From the IMG/VR virus record IMGVR_UViG_2657245521_000008: 10,364 nucleotides of DNA. One strand, 5' to 3'. The position numbers and the translations under genes are program-made. Below, piece by piece: positions 1,406 to 10,260 of this stretch (its first letter is position 1; each line of letters begins with the position of its first letter). A model generated the notes under the pieces. It did no database searches and was not told where the DNA came from. It saw nothing but the letters and a program-made list of their open reading frames with translations. The stretch is from a virus. Taxonomy: Duplodnaviria; Heunggongvirae; Uroviricota; Caudoviricetes.

Positions 1406-1450
1406 GTTATCATGAGCTATCATAACAACGCAACAAAGCGCACAATATGC

Positions 1451-1503
1451 GTGTACATAGAGGTGTACATAATGACTTTCATGTACATTGCTTTATGTAC
1501 ACC
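1451..1503. promoter_or_regulatory. Cluster of four palindromic TGTACA hexamers upstream of int; candidate integrase arm-type or AlpA/Vis-type binding sites within the int promoter region
   Basis: TGTACA occurs at 1452-1457, 1464-1469, 1482-1487 and 1496-1501. The first two copies are within an identical 9-mer gtgtacata and the last two share atgtaca. A CATAAT -10-like hexamer at 1468-1473 overlaps the cluster. Confidence 0.4.
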
Positions 1504-1530
1504 CCCATATTCGATATTCAGGTATTCGCA

Positions 1531-2784
1531 ATGCCAAAACTCACAGATATGCAGATCCGCGCATGGATAAAGGCGGGAGACAGATTTGATGGCAAGGCAG
1601 ACGGCAACGGCCTTTATATTTGCTACCCCAAAAACTACACAGTCCCGTTCTGGCGATTCCGCTATAAGCTCGCAGGAAAGCAGCGGGCTATGGTTATAGG
1701 CTCTTACTCCGAACTGTCACTATCAAAAGCCAGAGAAACAGCAAAAGAGCTGTCAGCCAGAGTTGCTCTTGGCTATGACGTAGCAGCAGAGAAACAGGAA
1801 CGAAAAGCTGAAGCACTGGCAAAAATGGAGGCTGAGAAAAACGCCATGCGTGTTTCAGATCTGGCCTCCGAATACTTCGAGCGCCAGATACTTCCGAGAT
1901 GGAAACATCCCGATATCCTTCGCCGGAGAATTGATAAGGATATTAACCCCTGCATTGGGCATATGAAGGTAGAGGATGTTAAGCCACGCCACATTGACGA
2001 CATGTTGAAAGGTATCGTTGACCGAGGAGCACCAACGATAGCAACAGATGTATTACGCTGGACACGCCGTATCTTTGACTATGGGATAAAACGCCACGCT
2101 CTGGAGATAAACCCTTGTTCAGCGTTTGAAGTATCTGATGCTGGTGGTAAAGAGGTTTCCCGCGACCGTTGGCTAACTCGCGATGAGCTTATCAGGCTAT
2201 TCGAGGCTATGCGCACCGCAAAAGGATTCAGCCGCCAAAACGAACTGACATTTAAACTATTGCTGGCACTATGCGTTCGTAAGATGGAGTTATGCGCCGC
2301 ACGATGGGAAGAGTTTGATTTAGATGGTGCGGTATGGCATTTGCCGGAAGAACGCAGCAAAAACGGAGACCCTATTGATATACCTCTACCTTCCCCAGCC
2401 GTTGAATGGTTGAGAGAGCTACACACCTTTTCATGTAATAGCGCATGGGTGCTTCCGGCCAGGAAGATGCAAAACAGAATGATCCCACATATTCAGGAAA
2501 GCACTTTACCCGTAGCACTGGCTAAGGTTCGCGCCGAAATGCCGGATGTGCCTAATTTCACGATTCACGACTTCCGACGCACCGCACGTACTCATTTAGC
2601 AGCATTGGGTGTTGATCCTGTCGTGGCGGAACGATGCCTCAATCATCGCATTAAGGGCGTAGAGGGGATTTATAACCGTCATCAGTATTTTGATGAGCGT
2701 AAAGCAGCACTGGCACAGTGGGCAGATCTGCTGGTGGCACTGGAAAGCGGAAAAGACTACAACGTAACGCCAATCAGAGCATGA
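1531..2784 (+). CDS. int: Tyrosine-type site-specific integrase, P4-like family (417 aa from the ATG at 1531)
   Basis: N-terminus MPKLTDMQIRAWIKAGDRFDGKADGNGLYICYPKNYTVPFWRFRYKLAGKQRAMVIGSY matches the P4/CP4-57 integrase arm-binding domain pattern. The C-terminus contains HDFRRT, LNH and YNRHQY, consistent with the catalytic R/H/R/Y region. The track ORF starts further upstream at 1447, but that extension has no family resemblance and overlaps the TGTACA repeats. Confidence 0.85.
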   Translation: MPKLTDMQIRAWIKAGDRFDGKADGNGLYICYPKNYTVPFWRFRYKLAGKQRAMVIGSYSELSLSKARETAKELSARVALGYDVAAEKQERKAEALAKMEAEKNAMRVSDLASEYFERQILPRWKHPDILRRRIDKDINPCIGHMKVEDVKPRHIDDMLKGIVDRGAPTIATDVLRWTRRIFDYGIKRHALEINPCSAFEVSDAGGKEVSRDRWLTRDELIRLFEAMRTAKGFSRQNELTFKLLLALCVRKMELCAARWEEFDLDGAVWHLPEERSKNGDPIDIPLPSPAVEWLRELHTFSCNSAWVLPARKMQNRMIPHIQESTLPVALAKVRAEMPDVPNFTIHDFRRTARTHLAALGVDPVVAERCLNHRIKGVEGIYNRHQYFDERKAALAQWADLLVALESGKDYNVTPIRA

Positions 2785-3859: not shown

Positions 3860-4063
3860 ATGAACATCGACACTATCCCTACAAAAGGCTATATCAGACG
3901 CTTTCGCCTGGCTGAATTGCTGGGCGTTAGTGTATCCACCATCGACCGTAAAGTAAGAAACGGTTCACTACCACGTCCGGTAAAGCTGGGAGAAAAAATA
4001 ACTGCGTTTGATGCGGTTGAGATTCACAACTGGCTGGCAGAACGCCGCGGGAAGGTGGCCTGA
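3860..4063 (+). CDS. alpA: AlpA-family phage transcriptional regulator / excisionase-like DNA-binding protein (67 aa)
   Basis: MNIDTIPTKGYIRRFRLAELLGVSVSTIDRKVRNGSLPRPVKLGEKITAFDAVEIHNWLAERRGKVA fits the AlpA/Vis pattern of a short helix-turn-helix followed by the LP.P.K.G and W motifs. Size and position after int match CP4-57 and PICI alpA. Confidence 0.8.
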   Translation: MNIDTIPTKGYIRRFRLAELLGVSVSTIDRKVRNGSLPRPVKLGEKITAFDAVEIHNWLAERRGKVA

Positions 4064-4506: not shown

Positions 4507-5340
4507 ATGAACATCGAAAAAAGCAGATTAATTTCTGAGGCCGCCCCTCATCTGAACGCCTCTCTGAGCACAATTAACGGTAATGAATTTGCCGCAATTG
4601 TCCCGGTTATTCCTGGTCATATCGGTGGGCGTGAAACCAATATTGTTAGCGCAAAAGCGTTACACAAAGCGTTGGGCGTGGGAAAAGACTTCTCTACATG
4701 GATCACTGATCGCATCTCTGAATATGACTTCACCATTGGGCACGATTACTCAGTCCATAAAACAATTTCCCCAAATTTGGGGAAAAGCCCGAATGGCGCG
4801 GCTTACAGCAAGATTAAGCAGTCTGGCAGACCCGGCAAAGACTATCTGTTAAGTGTCGGAATGGCGAAAGAACTGGCAATGATCGAACGCAATGATCAGG
4901 GTCGCGCTATCCGCCGTTATTTCATCCAGTGCGAGGAAGAATTACAGCGTAGCGTGCCTGAAATCGCCGCCCGCTATCGTCGCCAGCTAAAAGCCCGTAT
5001 CAGTGCCGCAAACAACTTTAAGCCAATGTGCGATGCGCTGAATATGGCCCGTGCCGAGATGGGGAAAACGACGCAGCAACACCACTACACAAACGAGAGC
5101 AATATGATTTCTCGTATCGTTCTTGGTGGGCTAACTGCTAAGCAGTGGGCGCGGATAAATGGCTATTCTGGCGAACCTCGCGACCATATGAACGCAGAAC
5201 AGCTTGAGCACCTCTCATATCTCGAAAGCACCAATATCACGTTAATTGATATGGGCATGGAATATGAGCAGCGCAAAGGAGAACTCACCCGCCTGTCGCA
5301 ACGCTGGCTCGCCAAGCGTCTGGAGGCGCTCAATGTCTAA
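4507..5340 (+). CDS. Phage antirepressor-like protein with AntA/AntB-type N-terminal domain (277 aa)
   Basis: The segment AAIVPVIPGHIGGRETNIVSAKALHKALGVGKDFSTWITDRISEYDFTIGHDY followed by DYLLSVGMAKELAMIERNDQGRAIRRYFIQCEEEL matches the conserved AntA antirepressor signature as I recall it. GGAGA Shine-Dalgarno 7 nt upstream. Confidence 0.78.
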   Translation: MNIEKSRLISEAAPHLNASLSTINGNEFAAIVPVIPGHIGGRETNIVSAKALHKALGVGKDFSTWITDRISEYDFTIGHDYSVHKTISPNLGKSPNGAAYSKIKQSGRPGKDYLLSVGMAKELAMIERNDQGRAIRRYFIQCEEELQRSVPEIAARYRRQLKARISAANNFKPMCDALNMARAEMGKTTQQHHYTNESNMISRIVLGGLTAKQWARINGYSGEPRDHMNAEQLEHLSYLESTNITLIDMGMEYEQRKGELTRLSQRWLAKRLEALNV

Positions 5341-5512
5341 GCCAACAGGAACACCACAACCACAAAAACGCTACAAAGATGCCCACGGAGCACTCGTTAC
5401 TGTCGAAAGCGTGTCTCACAACCGAGTGACGTTTTATCGCGACGGGTATCAATCGCCATGCGTACAACCGCTGGCACGTTTCATGAAGGAGTTCGCGGAG
5501 GTTAACCAATGA
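5333..5512 (+). CDS. Small hypothetical protein (59 aa) translationally coupled to the antirepressor gene
   Basis: The ATG at 5333 is preceded by GGAGG (5322-5326) with a 6-nt spacer, and overlaps the upstream stop (caATGtcTAA). The track ORF 5246..5512 is the same frame, but its upstream part lies inside the antirepressor gene with no ribosome-binding site. Confidence 0.5.
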   Translation: MSKPTGTPQPQKRYKDAHGALVTVESVSHNRVTFYRDGYQSPCVQPLARFMKEFAEVNQ

Positions 5513-6576
5513 TACCCGTCCAGAAGAAGACATTTTCACTGGCTGGTATGTCGCCAAAATCCAGCAATATGACGGCAAAGTCAGGCATTAATACAGCAGA
5601 TGCAAGCAAAGTTTATCATTTGCTGGTGGTCGGAACGGATGCCTTAACCATACCAGAAATCACGGGCGATGATGTTAGCGTTGAGAAGGTCAGCGGCTGC
5701 GCCAGAGAATTTCTGGTCGTAGATGACCTGTTCTGCTCGTGTAGTGACTCCACAAAAACATTCGTCCACGCGCGTGACGTTAACGAAATGAGCGCGATGT
5801 ACTGTGCTTCTGGTTCTTCCAATAGTGAGTTTTCGGAGTCCATAAAAAAGAGCTTGCCGTTATGCGGCAACACGGTTTATGGTTATAAGGCACCTCATAA
5901 AACGGGTGCCGGGATTGGCGTCCTGGTAAATCGAATGGCGACATATGACGCGCCGAGCGTCTTTTTTTATGTCGTAGGTCTGACTCACCCATTTTTTGGG
6001 CGTTGGTGTATAATCCAGCGCCTTTGTCAATCAATGGTGGCTCAGGCAGGGGCTTCTTCGGAAGCGCCGGTATCCATTCGAGCCGGTTACGCCAACCCTG
6101 TCTGGGCTACCACCAGCGAAATTGGCGTTTCCGGTGGTAGCGTTACATGCTATCGAATGGAGGCTGCCACATGCTGGCTACTACCCCTACCCAAAAACCG
6201 CAATTTATCTGGATTATCGCCGCAGTTCGCCGCGATTGCCCGACAATTACCGCCAAAATTCATCATATTGCTGCCGAGTCTGAACGCGATGCTCGCCGTT
6301 CTCTGGTGCGCGATCACATCTGCTTTTTTGCTGGTCGTATCCGCATGGAGGTGGCACATGATTAAAACCTACGATGTGCATATGGATCCCCTCGAACGCA
6401 CAAGCCAGATCATCACACTGACAGAAGTGATTAACGACATTCTGGTGAGCAACTCTCCCTCACGAGACGAAAGACTAAAGGCGTTACTCGCGATATTGGA
6501 TCTCGCCGTTCGTGACGTTCATTTCCTGCTGGAAGGTGGACAAATGCCATGCAAAACGGGGGCAACCAATGAATAA
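5509..6576 (+). CDS. Hypothetical protein as the stop-free ORF (355 aa); integrity doubtful, possibly a fusion of an upstream gene, a non-coding control region and a separate 72-aa gene starting at 6358
   Basis: GGAGG (5497-5501) lies 7 nt before the ATG at 5509, which overlaps the upstream stop (ATGA). No stop occurs in this frame until 6574-6576. However, 5947-6170 carries terminator, promoter and hairpin features, and in 6171-6357 this frame uses rare codons (cta, tta, cga, agg, ata) while another frame looks genuinely coding. An internal ATG at 6358 has its own GGAGG. Confidence 0.4.
5947..5968 (+). terminator. Terminator-like hairpin with a 7-T tract, lying inside the 355-codon ORF
   Basis: gacgc (5947-5951) pairs with gcgtc (5957-5961) around a 5-nt loop, then TTTTTTT at 5962-5968. 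Stop codons occur in the other two forward frames right here (TGA at 5946-5948, TAG at 5975-5977). Confidence 0.3.
6009..6014 (+). promoter_or_regulatory. Perfect TATAAT -10 hexamer (no clear -35), about 160 nt upstream of the ORF at 6171; candidate promoter for the small-gene/primase operon or for a leader RNA
   Basis: TATAAT at 6009-6014 is immediately preceded by TG and sits in an otherwise GC-rich stretch, about 40 nt downstream of the terminator-like hairpin. Confidence 0.3.
6171..6365 (+). CDS. Small hypothetical protein (64 aa) in a different frame from the 355-codon ORF
   Basis: GGAGG at 6159-6163 lies 7 nt before the ATG at 6171. Codons are typical of E. coli genes (ctg, gct, acc, ccg, atc, gcc, cgc, gat, gtg). 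The stop overlaps the next start as ATGATTAA at 6358-6365. The track shows this frame as 6147..6365. Confidence 0.45.
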   Translation: MLATTPTQKPQFIWIIAAVRRDCPTITAKIHHIAAESERDARRSLVRDHICFFAGRIRMEVAHD

Positions 6577-6763
6577 CTCAATTAATACCCCTCGCCTTAC
6601 GTCCGCACTTCAATTAATCGAGCAAGCAGCGGCTGTCCTGGTTGCTGTCAGTCTTTCGGCTGAAGAAATGGACGCTGCTGATGTCGTGGATGCGATTAAA
6701 GCGTGCTCATCTTTGGTTAACGATGCCCGTGCCGAGCTGGTAATTCTTGGGGGTGAAAAATGA
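6569..6763 (+). CDS. Small hypothetical protein (64 aa)
   Basis: The ATG at 6569 overlaps the upstream stop as ATGAATAA, with GGGGG about 8 nt upstream. It is the plausible start within track ORF 6512..6763, and its stop overlaps the next ATG (ATGA at 6760-6763). Confidence 0.5.
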   Translation: MNNSINTPRLTSALQLIEQAAAVLVAVSLSAEEMDAADVVDAIKACSSLVNDARAELVILGGEK

Positions 6764-7023
6764 ATATCAACTTAATTTATCGTCATCCGTGTGAGCTGGA
6801 AATTGAATCATTGCTGGGGCGCGAAGAGCCATATCCAGACACATTCACTCCCGCAGATTGCGCGACTGAACGGCTTACCAGAGCGCGCACAGGTCTGGTT
6901 CATGTGATGAATGAGATTGTTCCCTCGGTGGGAGGGGAACAGGCGACAGTAATCAATAGCTGGCTACAAAAAGTTACCTCCCTGATAGATATCGGTTTAA
7001 TCGATGTGGAGAGTGCGAAATGA
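6760..7023 (+). CDS. Small hypothetical protein (87 aa)
   Basis: Complete ORF with start/stop overlaps on both sides (ATGA), GGGGGTG upstream, and ordinary coding-like composition. Confidence 0.6.
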   Translation: MNINLIYRHPCELEIESLLGREEPYPDTFTPADCATERLTRARTGLVHVMNEIVPSVGGEQATVINSWLQKVTSLIDIGLIDVESAK

Positions 7024-7848: not shown

Positions 7849-10260
7849 ATGCGAAACATTGATCTTATCCGTCAGGTTATCAGTGCGTCTGAAAACAACT
7901 GGCCTCATGTGCTGGGCTGCCTGAACATAAATGTCCCTGACTCTCCGCGCCGTCATGCTCCCTGCCCTGCATGTGGGGGCAAAGATCGATTCCGGTTCGA
8001 TGACAACGGGCGCGGTAGCTTCATCTGTAATCAGTGCGGCGCTGGTGATGGGCTGGATTTAATTAAACGCGTAAATAACTGCGACACAACAGAGGCGGCG
8101 CTGCTTGCCGCTGATGTTCTGGGTATTGATTACCGGACAACGGAAACACCAGAAGCCACCAGCCAGAAACGGGAACAACTGGAAACCGAGCGCCAGCGAC
8201 GCGAACAGGAGCGCCTGAAAAGGGCGGAGAAGGACGAACAACAAAGACGGGATACGTTTTCCCGTCAGTTTGATGACATGCGCAGAAAGGCTGTAAACGG
8301 CAAATCTGATTATCTGGTTGCGAAAGGGGTAGGTGATTTTACATTCCCCGTGTTGCCCGATGGATCTCTGTTGCTGGCGCTGGTGGATAAATCCGGCGCA
8401 GTCACAGCAGCACAGACTATTACCTCACATGGTGAAAAAAGACTCCTGACAGGTTCAGCAAAGCGGGGGGCATATCACGCCATAAACGCACCAGAAACAA
8501 CACAGAGCATCTTAATCGCAGAAGGGCTGGCAACGGCATTATCTGCCCATTTAATTCGTCCAGAGGCGCTGACAGTGGCGGCGATTGATGCCGGGAACCT
8601 GTTATATGTCGCCCAGGTACTGCGGGATAAATTTCCTTCAGCACAAATCATCATTGCTGCGGATAACGACCACAGCGAAGGAAGACAAAACACGGGGAGA
8701 ATAGCAGCAGAAAAAGCAGCTTTATCTGTTTCTGGATGGGTGGCATTACCCCCGACAGGTCACAAAGCAGACTGGAATGATTACCACCAAAAACACGGCA
8801 TTAAATGCGCCACAGAAGCGTTCAATAAGTCAATGTACCAACCACAGGGTAATGGCGTGAAACAGGAGCCACAGACCATTGAGGGAAGCGATTTTAAGGT
8901 TATGGATACCGACCCACTGAAACCAAGAATAGAAAGCCGCGAGGATGGTATTTATTGGGTATCTCCGAGAGCTGACAGCCAGAGTGGAGAAATCATCAAT
9001 AACGAAAGCTGGTTATGTTCTCCGTTAAGCGTTATCGGTACTGGCAGAGACGATAAAGACCAGTATCTCATTCTTCGCTGGCTGTCGTTTGGTTCTGAAA
9101 CGCCGACAACCGCTGCCATTCCACTGGCTGATATTGGTGAACGTGAAGGATGGCGCACACTTAAAGCTGGTGGGGTAAATGTCACGACCAAAAGCAGCCT
9201 CAGAGCAATACTGGCAGACTGGCTACAACGCAGTGGCTCTCGTGAATTGTGGCGTGTTGCTCATGCCACTGGCTGGCAATGCGGAGCGTACATCATGCCT
9301 GATGGGGAAATCATCGGAACACCTGAAAATCCTGTGCTGTTCAGCGGGAGAAGCTCAGCCGCAGCCGGATATACCGTCTCAGGGAGCGCGAAAAGCTGGC
9401 GTGATAACGTGGCGCGTCTGGCCTTTGGTAACTATTCAATGATGACCGGGATCGGCGCAGCACTGGCAGCGCCATTGATTGGGCTGGTGGGCGCTGACGG
9501 GTTCGGCATTCATTTCTATGAGCAGTCGAGCGCGGGTAAGACCACCACGGCAAACGTGGCGAGCAGCTTATACGGCAACCCTGATTTACTGCGGCTGACG
9601 TGGTACGGAACCGCGCTGGGGCTGGCAAATGAGGCCGCCGCCCACAATGACGGATTAATGCCGCTTGATGAAGTTGGTCAGGGCGCTGATCCTGTCAGCG
9701 TTTCACAGTCTGCCTATGCGTTATTTAACGGTGTAGGGAAACTGCAAGGCGCTAAAGATGGTGGAAACCGGGATCTAAAACGCTGGCGTACAGTGGCAAT
9801 CAGCACCGGAGAAATGGATTTAGAAACATTTATCGCTACTTCCGGGCGAAAAACCAAAGCCGGGCAACTGGTGCGACTGCTGAATATTCCGTTGAGTAAA
9901 GCAGTACGCTTTCACGATTACCAGAACGGAAAACAGCACGCAGACGCACTGAAAGACGCTTACCAGCATCACCATGGCGCAGCCGGGCGTGAGTGGATTA
10001 AATGGCTGGCAGACCACCAGCAACAGGCTATTAAAACTGTTCGTGATTGCGAAAGCAGATGGAGAAGCCTGATCCCATCCGATTATGGTGAGCAGGTTCA
10101 CCGTGTAGCCGCGCGATTTGCCATTCTGGAGGCCGCATTGTTGTTAGGCGAGGTTGTAACAGGCTGGGATGCTCAGACATGCCGTGATGCGATACAGCAC
10201 AGCTATAACGCATGGTTGCGCGAGTTCGGCACAAGTACGTGGGAACCGTGGTCGGGTTAA
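7849..10260 (+). CDS. Primase / replication initiation protein (803 aa): N-terminal zinc-binding primase motif, Toprim domain, C-terminal NTPase/helicase-like domain (P4 alpha / PICI Pri-Rep type)
   Basis: CPACGGKDRFRFDDNGRGSFICNQCGAGDGLDL at residues 38-72 is a Cys4 primase zinc-ribbon motif. ILIAEGLATALSAH ... IIIAADNDHSEGRQNTGRIAAEKAA at residues 221-290 is Toprim-like (E ... DxD). A P-loop-like SSAGKTT lies at residues 560-566. GGGGG Shine-Dalgarno precedes the ATG. Confidence 0.9.
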   Translation: MRNIDLIRQVISASENNWPHVLGCLNINVPDSPRRHAPCPACGGKDRFRFDDNGRGSFICNQCGAGDGLDLIKRVNNCDTTEAALLAADVLGIDYRTTETPEATSQKREQLETERQRREQERLKRAEKDEQQRRDTFSRQFDDMRRKAVNGKSDYLVAKGVGDFTFPVLPDGSLLLALVDKSGAVTAAQTITSHGEKRLLTGSAKRGAYHAINAPETTQSILIAEGLATALSAHLIRPEALTVAAIDAGNLLYVAQVLRDKFPSAQIIIAADNDHSEGRQNTGRIAAEKAALSVSGWVALPPTGHKADWNDYHQKHGIKCATEAFNKSMYQPQGNGVKQEPQTIEGSDFKVMDTDPLKPRIESREDGIYWVSPRADSQSGEIINNESWLCSPLSVIGTGRDDKDQYLILRWLSFGSETPTTAAIPLADIGEREGWRTLKAGGVNVTTKSSLRAILADWLQRSGSRELWRVAHATGWQCGAYIMPDGEIIGTPENPVLFSGRSSAAAGYTVSGSAKSWRDNVARLAFGNYSMMTGIGAALAAPLIGLVGADGFGIHFYEQSSAGKTTTANVASSLYGNPDLLRLTWYGTALGLANEAAAHNDGLMPLDEVGQGADPVSVSQSAYALFNGVGKLQGAKDGGNRDLKRWRTVAISTGEMDLETFIATSGRKTKAGQLVRLLNIPLSKAVRFHDYQNGKQHADALKDAYQHHHGAAGREWIKWLADHQQQAIKTVRDCESRWRSLIPSDYGEQVHRVAARFAILEAALLLGEVVTGWDAQTCRDAIQHSYNAWLREFGTSTWEPWSG

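Follow-up and report, generated by a model that had tools for sequence, protein, structure and literature searches.

The immunity factor of the satellite P4 is the CI RNA, processed from the leader transcript, and not a protein, and the P4 module also includes a Rho-dependent terminator, timm. As summarized in PMC10111431, a constitutive promoter lies inside the P4 gene eta (Forti et al. 1999, cited therein), pairing of CI with the seqA leader RNA brings about early termination, Kil corresponds to a shortened Eta, and Eta is coupled to an upstream alpA homologue, its translation preventing termination; the same paper finds that the C4 and isrK models detect relatives of CI and seqA inside 'Bro-network' genes such as eta. 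Here we describe a related locus in a 10,364-nucleotide window (the whole stretch of DNA analysed; IMG/VR record IMGVR_UViG_2657245521_000008, Caudoviricetes) that is part of an Escherichia coli P4-like island. At its center is a 355-codon open reading frame (ORF) at 5509-6576, named 'ash family protein' by the Prokaryotic Genome Annotation Pipeline (PGAP). We conclude that this frame is probably an eta-like read-through ORF laid across a P4-type RNA immunity switch, and a frame-shifted variant of the eta/kil arrangement.

Two other described systems share parts of this design. The c4 and c4-a1b1 motifs were reported by Weinberg et al. (2010; PMC2864571). In the immI region of P1 and P7 (c4, icd, ant1/ant2), as in the window, a C4-type RNA with two effector segments faces complementary sites upstream (a1b1) and at the icd ribosome-binding site (a2b2), and an icd-like gene is followed by a gene whose start overlaps it. 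The window differs in that its downstream gene has no antirepressor domain, an AntA/AntB gene lying upstream instead (4507-5340), in that a long ORF spans its RNA genes, and in being a P4-like island with integrase and primase rather than a P1-like plasmid prophage. In the isrK-orf45-anrP region of Salmonella Gifsy-1 (Hershko-Shalev et al. 2016, PMC4825925), isrK has its own terminator, so that a short isoform and a read-through one arise, the middle portion of the RNA base-pairs about 130 nucleotides (nt) further downstream, and expression of the next gene needs translation of a small ORF downstream of isrK. An isrK leader with its own terminator is common to Gifsy-1 and the window. The short RNA of Gifsy-1, however, acts in trans as an activator of translation, and what the locus finally expresses is an antirepressor-like protein and then AntQ. 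Given its requirement for small-ORF translation, Gifsy-1 provides a related experimental precedent for the read-through reading proposed here.

The elements of the locus in the window are as follows.

5509-6576, plus strand: long open frame, 355 codons, 1068 nt
5854-5883, plus strand: predicted internal constitutive promoter, analogue of P4 PLE (-35 TTGCCG at 5854-5859, -10 TATGGT at 5878-5883)
5890-5967, plus strand: isrK / c4-a1b1 / P4 seqA-like leader RNA (Rfam RF01394, 67.1 bits against a gathering cut-off of 50)
5915-5921: leader target site b1, TTGGCGT
5931-5938: leader target site a1, TCGAATGG
5947-5968, plus strand: intrinsic terminator, hairpin 5947-5961 followed by T7 at 5962-5968
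6030-6117, plus strand: C4 / P4 CI-like antisense immunity RNA (Rfam RF01695, 79.5 bits against a gathering cut-off of 45)
6073-6081: C4 effector a', TCCATTCGA, in the loop of hairpin 2
6089-6095: C4 effector b', ACGCCAA
6118-6170, plus strand: seqC-like downstream target, complementary to the C4 effectors
6122-6128: downstream site b2, TTGGCGT
6153-6161: downstream site a2, TCGAATGGA, overlapping the icd Shine-Dalgarno (SD) sequence GGAGG at 6159-6163
6171-6365, plus strand: icd/kil-like gene, 64 amino acids (aa) from the ATG at 6171 (family NF033153; PGAP places its start at 6147)
6358-6576, plus strand: orf72, GGAGG at 6347-6351 and ATG at 6358, its start overlapping the icd stop

The order of these parts is identical to that in P4, where the isrK model matches the seqA region and the C4 model matches the CI RNA region. 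In both elements the first gene is Icd-like and has a target site lying across its SD, and the gene after it begins on the icd/kil stop codon. The long ORF, too, is placed alike: it overlaps the preceding gene, begins ahead of the internal promoter (a predicted one in the window) and runs across the RNAs. A primase gene lies downstream in each. P4 Kil (65 aa) falls in the NF033153 family (76 bits), and orf72 occupies the place of P4 epsilon, to which it has no similarity by BLASTP. The two elements differ in frame: the P4 long ORF is in frame and coterminal with kil, whereas that of the window reads through all of icd in the +1 frame and terminates at the orf72 stop. In addition, isrK and C4 are separated by 62 nt in the window and by 107 nt in P4, the N-terminal 127 codons are unrelated, and the specificity loop reads TCCATTCGA in the window and TCCTGTGAA in P4.

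To compare the locus more widely, we collected 98 loci with the Icd-like protein, rather than the Ash frame, as the sole anchor; species-representative genomes supplied 18 of them and IMG/VR the other 80. Together with the window, P4 and two RefSeq loci, they collapse to 88 distinct sequences. The preliminary description of the window, made by reading its letters alone, had pointed to a terminator-like hairpin, to stops in the two other frames coinciding with it (TGA at 5946-5948, TAG at 5975-5977), and to two homopolymers, A6 at 5844-5849 and T7 at 5962-5968. All lie exactly where it put them, and a terminator scan finds the hairpin at 5947-5961 with its T7 tract, which is the 3' end of the isrK match, a match that spans the full model (1-77), terminator included. 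That description did not notice that the same zone of frame conflict holds two Rfam RNA elements and a predicted internal promoter.

The C4 element is a long closing stem with two internal hairpins; in the comparison across loci, 99.1% of alignment cells are paired, with compensatory changes at 16 of the 27 pairs, against 33-52% paired in slid controls. In the window, C4 forms calculated duplexes of -35.3 kcal/mol with the upstream leader site and -36.4 kcal/mol with the downstream site. Among 36 effector types, the C4 loops show covariation with the two targets. Over these types the mean for cognate duplexes is -35.0 kcal/mol, compared with -25.4 kcal/mol for non-cognate combinations, and none of 10,000 permutations reaches the cognate mean. 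The identities of the two RNAs and their covariation with the targets are demonstrated here.

Three loci (L031, L032 and L005) have flanks 93-100% identical to the window and an RNA cassette (compare 5930-6165) only about 60% identical to it, the three complementary sites changing jointly (for example TCCTTGTAC, GTACGAGG and GTACAAGGAGG); these swaps look like an exchange of heteroimmune cassettes. At the 5' end of the C4 stem, the ATGGT of ATGGTG (6034-6039) is invariant in 29 diverse sequences (alignment A2, columns 5-9). Its ATG lies in the frame of the long ORF, and might be an internal start on transcripts from the internal promoter, in which case it could be the counterpart of Gifsy-1 orf45.

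Directly upstream of the leader, nearly all loci conserve the promoter pattern AAAAAAGGGCTTGCSG-N17/18-TATGGTTATAGC-GCACC with a variable spacer, in its fuller form AAAAAAGGGC-TTGCCG-(17-18 variable nt)-TATGGTTATAGC-GCACC. The -10 element sits at -12 to -7 from the isrK model start, the identical position to the -10 annotated in P4, and the A-tract at 5844-5849 precedes the predicted promoter, whose start is predicted near 5890. On the minus strand at 5854-5870, overlapping the predicted -35, a hairpin TTGCCGCATAACGGCAA followed by GCTCTTTTTT scores as an intrinsic terminator; it may belong to an antisense transcript or may be a chance match.

The genes at the 3' end of the locus account for the conflict of frames. 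The preliminary description had observed that between 6171 and 6357 the long frame is rich in rare codons while an overlapping frame with a strong GGAGG looks like a typical gene, and a codon-usage comparison by frame, which it had suggested as a check, bears this out: rare codons make up 12 of 62 in the long frame and 0 of 62 in the icd frame, with codon log-odds of -0.14 and +0.37, respectively. From 6147 to 6365 the sequence matches the NCBIfam Icd-like family NF033153 (1.3e-19), and diversity by codon position in the icd frame is 0.12/0.11/0.35 (p = 3e-11); the most variable position of the long frame within the overlap is its second codon position. Judged by these sequence signals, 6171-6365 is a real Icd/Kil-like gene under amino-acid selection, to which the role of cell-division inhibitor is assigned by family. 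Its neighbor orf72, already taken as coding in the preliminary description, has a codon log-odds of +0.30 and, within the window's own family, a ratio of non-synonymous to synonymous polymorphism (pN/pS) of 0.25; it has no match in Pfam or NCBIfam. Both icd and orf72 are demonstrably protein-coding.

In every locus the SD and start codon of the next gene overlap the icd stop, mostly in the form GGAGGTGGCNCATGNNTAA, which places that gene in the +1 frame, and alternatively as GGAGGTGGCAGCATGA, which places it in the +2 frame. Two configurations of the long frame occur. In 36 of the 88 loci, P4 among them, the long frame is the icd frame and ends at the icd stop (the eta/kil nesting); in the other 52, the window included, it is +1 to icd. 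A single base separates the two forms: the spacer from GGAGG to the icd ATG is 7 or 8 nt long. Since the next gene lies in the +1 frame, a long ORF of the +1 form continues to the stop of that gene, and in the window ('configuration A') orf72 supplies the stop codon at 6576. The +1 frame within icd is free of stops in all 52 loci that use it and in only 7 of the 36 that do not, a contrast whose Fisher p of 5.5e-17 is indicative only and overstates independence, the loci being kin to one another. The same contrast is seen inside mixed icd clusters of at least 93% identity, and the +2 frame inside icd carries stops in 85 of the 88 loci.

These configurations raise the question of whether a programmed -1 frameshift near the icd start could yield an Ash-Icd fusion resembling P4 Eta. 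The 36 in-frame loci, P4 included, do encode such a fusion, the two types are one spacer base apart, and the window has a CAAAAAC run at 6192-6198. However, no X_XXY_YYZ heptamer occurs in the long frame and none is conserved among the out-of-frame homologues, in agreement with the preliminary search for a slippery site; the A-run itself is not conserved, other out-of-frame loci having CAAATTC or CAAAATC; and in all 52 loci that use the +1 frame it stays free of stops to the end of icd, which would be needless if ribosomes left it early. We therefore regard a programmed frameshift as highly improbable.

The long frame itself is open for 1068 nt from 5509, as the preliminary description had read it. 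Its ATG overlaps the TGA of the preceding DUF4222 gene (ATGA) and follows a GGAGG at 5497-5501, an arrangement that suggests the two genes are probably translationally coupled. Across loci the long-frame start is always an ATG after a GGAGG- or GGGGG-type sequence, the ATG often overlapping the preceding stop in the same way. Two loci (L036 and L061) have the DUF4222 gene fused in frame to the long ORF (N-terminus ...NRVTFYREGYQFPCVKPIERFMKEV...), as an upstream gene and the read-through ORF can evidently merge into one frame. Near the start of the window's ORF, at 5530-5550 (ttcactggctggtatgtcgcc), lies the nucleotide motif CTGGCTGGCCTGATGT (peptide '..SLAGLM..'), which recurs within the first approximately 60 nt of the long ORF in several families with otherwise unrelated 5' parts and could be a binding site or an RNA element.

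The preliminary description had suspected an artefact or a recent fusion behind the 355-aa ORF: a one-base difference in A6 or T7, whether a sequencing error or a real indel, would have joined a short gene (5509 to about 5948-5977) to the frames downstream. Rare database variants of just this kind exist: P0084 and P0092 are frameshifted exactly at the T7 and end at 6140. Yet these clusters have 4 and 11 members, compared with 306, 1393 and 484 in intact ones. Homologous predicted proteins of 320-376 aa, the observation that the description itself had said would count against its suspicion, are common in E. coli and Klebsiella, cover 98-100% of the query down to 48-50% identity and form clusters of hundreds. 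Among 5426 complete E. coli genomes, 1378 match a 1.5-kb query (5300-6800) and 479 contain at least 80% of it. The frame is open across the region in 87 of the 88 loci, other genera and P4 included. An indel artefact or recent fusion is thus very unlikely, and what stands of the original suspicion is a real conflict of frames, for which overprinting is a fair description in 6171-6357.

The open frame extends 350-700 nt upstream of icd (more than 1100 nt in one locus) and passes through isrK and C4 in a phase that is constant across loci. It does so even though most 5' parts have no homology from one locus to another (about 40% identity), and remains open where the RNA cassette is only about 60% identical between near-identical flanks. 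Counted over all 88 sequences from the leader start up to the icd ATG, stops in the long frame number 2, and a single frameshifted locus accounts for both; the other frames have 272 and 364 (0.02 per sequence versus 3.1 and 4.1). These two frames have stops at 37 and 28 polymorphic positions, and single-base changes give access to a stop by a similar number of paths in all three frames (24, 32 and 37 per sequence).

Peptide-level constraint is a different matter. Diversity by codon position is flat in the isrK part (0.188/0.196/0.185) and in the C4 part (0.278/0.272/0.288), with no codon periodicity in either (p = 0.8 to 0.97), and pN/pS is 0.99 in the RNA part of the ORF, as against 0.22-0.30 in neighboring genes. 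With stops nearly absent, mutational access to them similar and peptide constraint lacking, it follows that the frame is selected to be open and not for its peptide. Selection keeps the long frame open, while its middle approximately 230 codons are unconstrained as peptide.

This bears on the view that the long ORF is an untranslated annotation artefact, conserved RNAs happening to be stop-free in that frame. The middle of the ORF does evolve like non-coding RNA, and PGAP is inconsistent about it, giving strain 21EVA a truncated pseudo 'ash' plus an Icd-like gene despite an intact ORF. However, chance would not readily account for the near-absence of stops where the other frames, with comparable mutational access, are polymorphic for them, nor for a frame held open through variable spacers, swapped cassettes and mostly non-homologous 5' parts. 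The conserved SD and ATG starts, and stop-freedom within icd that tracks use of the frame, likewise speak for translation. We consider an untranslated frame unlikely.

The opposite alternative, that 5509-6576 encodes a functional protein of the Ash family as any ordinary gene would and that the RNA motifs are embedded in it by coincidence, seems to us no more probable. The ORF is conserved and has an SD and ATG, PGAP calls it as a coding sequence, its 5' 127 codons have a pN/pS of 0.45, and PF10554 (Phage_ASH) is matched over its full profile at aa 124-232 (2.9e-30; 105.3 bits against a gathering cut-off of 26), the only Pfam match of the 355-aa product. That matched stretch, however, corresponds to nt 5878-6204 and comprises the -10 element, isrK, the spacer, C4, seqC and the icd ribosome-binding site, where amino-acid-level constraint was not found by codon-position diversity or pN/pS. 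The conservation is explained by RNA base pairs and antisense covariation; the N-terminal parts are non-homologous between loci; and in the icd overlap the long frame varies most at its second codon position. AlphaFold2, run with a 36-sequence alignment, gives no confident fold for the 355-aa product (mean predicted local distance difference test score, pLDDT, 32.7; predicted template modelling score, pTM, 0.19).

P4 presents the same picture. By tblastn, residues 124-232 of the long ORF map to P4 8369-8728, overlapping an ORF labelled 'put. ash gene' or 'cI gene product (AA 1-137)' in P4 records and followed by epsilon. This annotated stretch, in which the C4 model locates the CI RNA, is the 137-codon 3' part of the P4 long ORF. 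In our P4 locus (L003), the long ORF at 2417-3058 matches PF10554 at aa 37-161, followed by an Icd-like domain at aa 161-208; the PF10554 stretch (2525-2899) is the -10 element, isrK/seqA, C4/CI and seqC. The PF10554 profile, which the window's ORF matches so well, is therefore translated promoter and regulatory-RNA sequence under RNA-type rather than protein-type constraint. It is distinct from P4 epsilon, whose family is PF25738. In PMC8628076, a survey of P4-like satellites, Ash and epsilon were treated as one and the same and PF10554 served as the marker for epsilon; what this marker really detects is the immunity RNA region.

Annotation of the stretch varies between records. In two near-identical loci (L002, NZ_CP138427.1, and L001, NZ_CP073924.1), both with the long ORF intact, PGAP calls a 355-aa 'ash family protein' in one genome, and a truncated pseudo 'ash' together with an 'Icd-like protein' in the other; neither record includes the two RNAs, isrK and C4. 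The H7-H9 annotation names one gene of this stretch 'nicotinic acetylcholine receptor subunit beta'. We also considered a minus-strand ORF at 5616-5873 as the real gene of the 5' part and rejected it, given a pN/pS of 0.82 versus 0.46 in the plus frame, no family match and conserved plus-strand starts.

With the rivals so weighed, we return to an eta-like read-through ORF, whose function and direction of regulation we infer from P4. By analogy with P4 and P1, transcripts in the quiescent state would start at the internal promoter near 5890 and yield the leader and the C4-like RNA. Base pairing of the C4 effector segments to the leader and the icd ribosome-binding site would block icd translation and trigger premature termination, and icd, orf72 and the downstream replication genes would thereby stay off. 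The long ORF starts upstream of the internal promoter, so that it is translatable only from transcripts of the alpA-antA-DUF4222 operon. On such transcripts, ribosomes from 5509 would traverse the leader terminator, C4, the target site and all of icd and, like translation of P4 eta, would prevent the RNA pairings and termination; the upstream transcript would then read through into the replication genes.

Several points weigh against this scheme. The internal promoter and its start site are predicted only, and a strict consensus promoter scan did not report the site at 5854-5883. The pN/pS of the 5' part makes a function for the N-terminal peptide possible. The out-of-frame form might act differently from P4, for example by occluding icd initiation. 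The kinship among loci noted above also tempers the statistics.

We further propose, tentatively and as a bet we would rate slightly below even, that the long ORF acts as a 'ribosome conduit', selected only for translatability over about 700 stop-free nt, with the form of the frame deciding whether Kil/Icd is included, and with PF10554 not being a protein domain. The stop-free stretch would take in a promoter, a terminator and the two regulatory RNAs before passing, in the +1 frame, through a toxic gene, and ribosomes arriving on upstream transcripts would switch off RNA-based immunity in cis. A one-base spacer change would then set whether the toxic Kil/Icd domain is made within the read-through product (P4 type) or avoided (window type).

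The rest of the window comprises the following.

478-1341: yicC, adjoining the insertion site of the island
1447-2784, plus strand: integrase
3860-4063, plus strand: AlpA-like gene
4507-5340, plus strand: AntA/AntB gene
5333-5512, plus strand: DUF4222 gene (PGAP annotation; Pfam PF13973, 5.8e-25; pN/pS 0.22)
7849-10260, plus strand: P4-alpha-like primase

Several small ORFs of the island also lie on the plus strand, and starts and stops overlap for most island genes. A tRNA scan of the window found no tRNA gene; the attachment site adjoining yicC is not a tRNA gene within the window. A 317-codon ORF on the minus strand at 460-1413, antisense to yicC, is almost certainly a spurious shadow of the yicC frame.

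P4 immunity, P1 immI and the Rfam C4 and isrK families are already known, as is the nesting of such RNAs in a long ORF, in P4 and as noted for phage-inducible chromosomal islands. Within the part of the literature covered, three things appear to be new, namely a common configuration in which the long ORF overprints icd out of frame, quantitative evidence for selection on openness alone, and the explicit mapping of PF10554 onto promoter and RNA sequence. The name 'Ash family protein' has been assigned through PF10554 to thousands of enterobacterial ORFs, and the real elements, namely the isrK-like leader, the C4-like RNA and icd, are often left unannotated or called pseudogenes. The locus is a natural example of selection for an open frame without selection for a peptide, with its two configurations as a built-in control, and the P4 model in which translation overrides RNA immunity becomes testable in many elements. 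Finally, at least 36 specificity types, together with loci that differ only in their cassettes, point to widespread heteroimmunity among P4-like islands.

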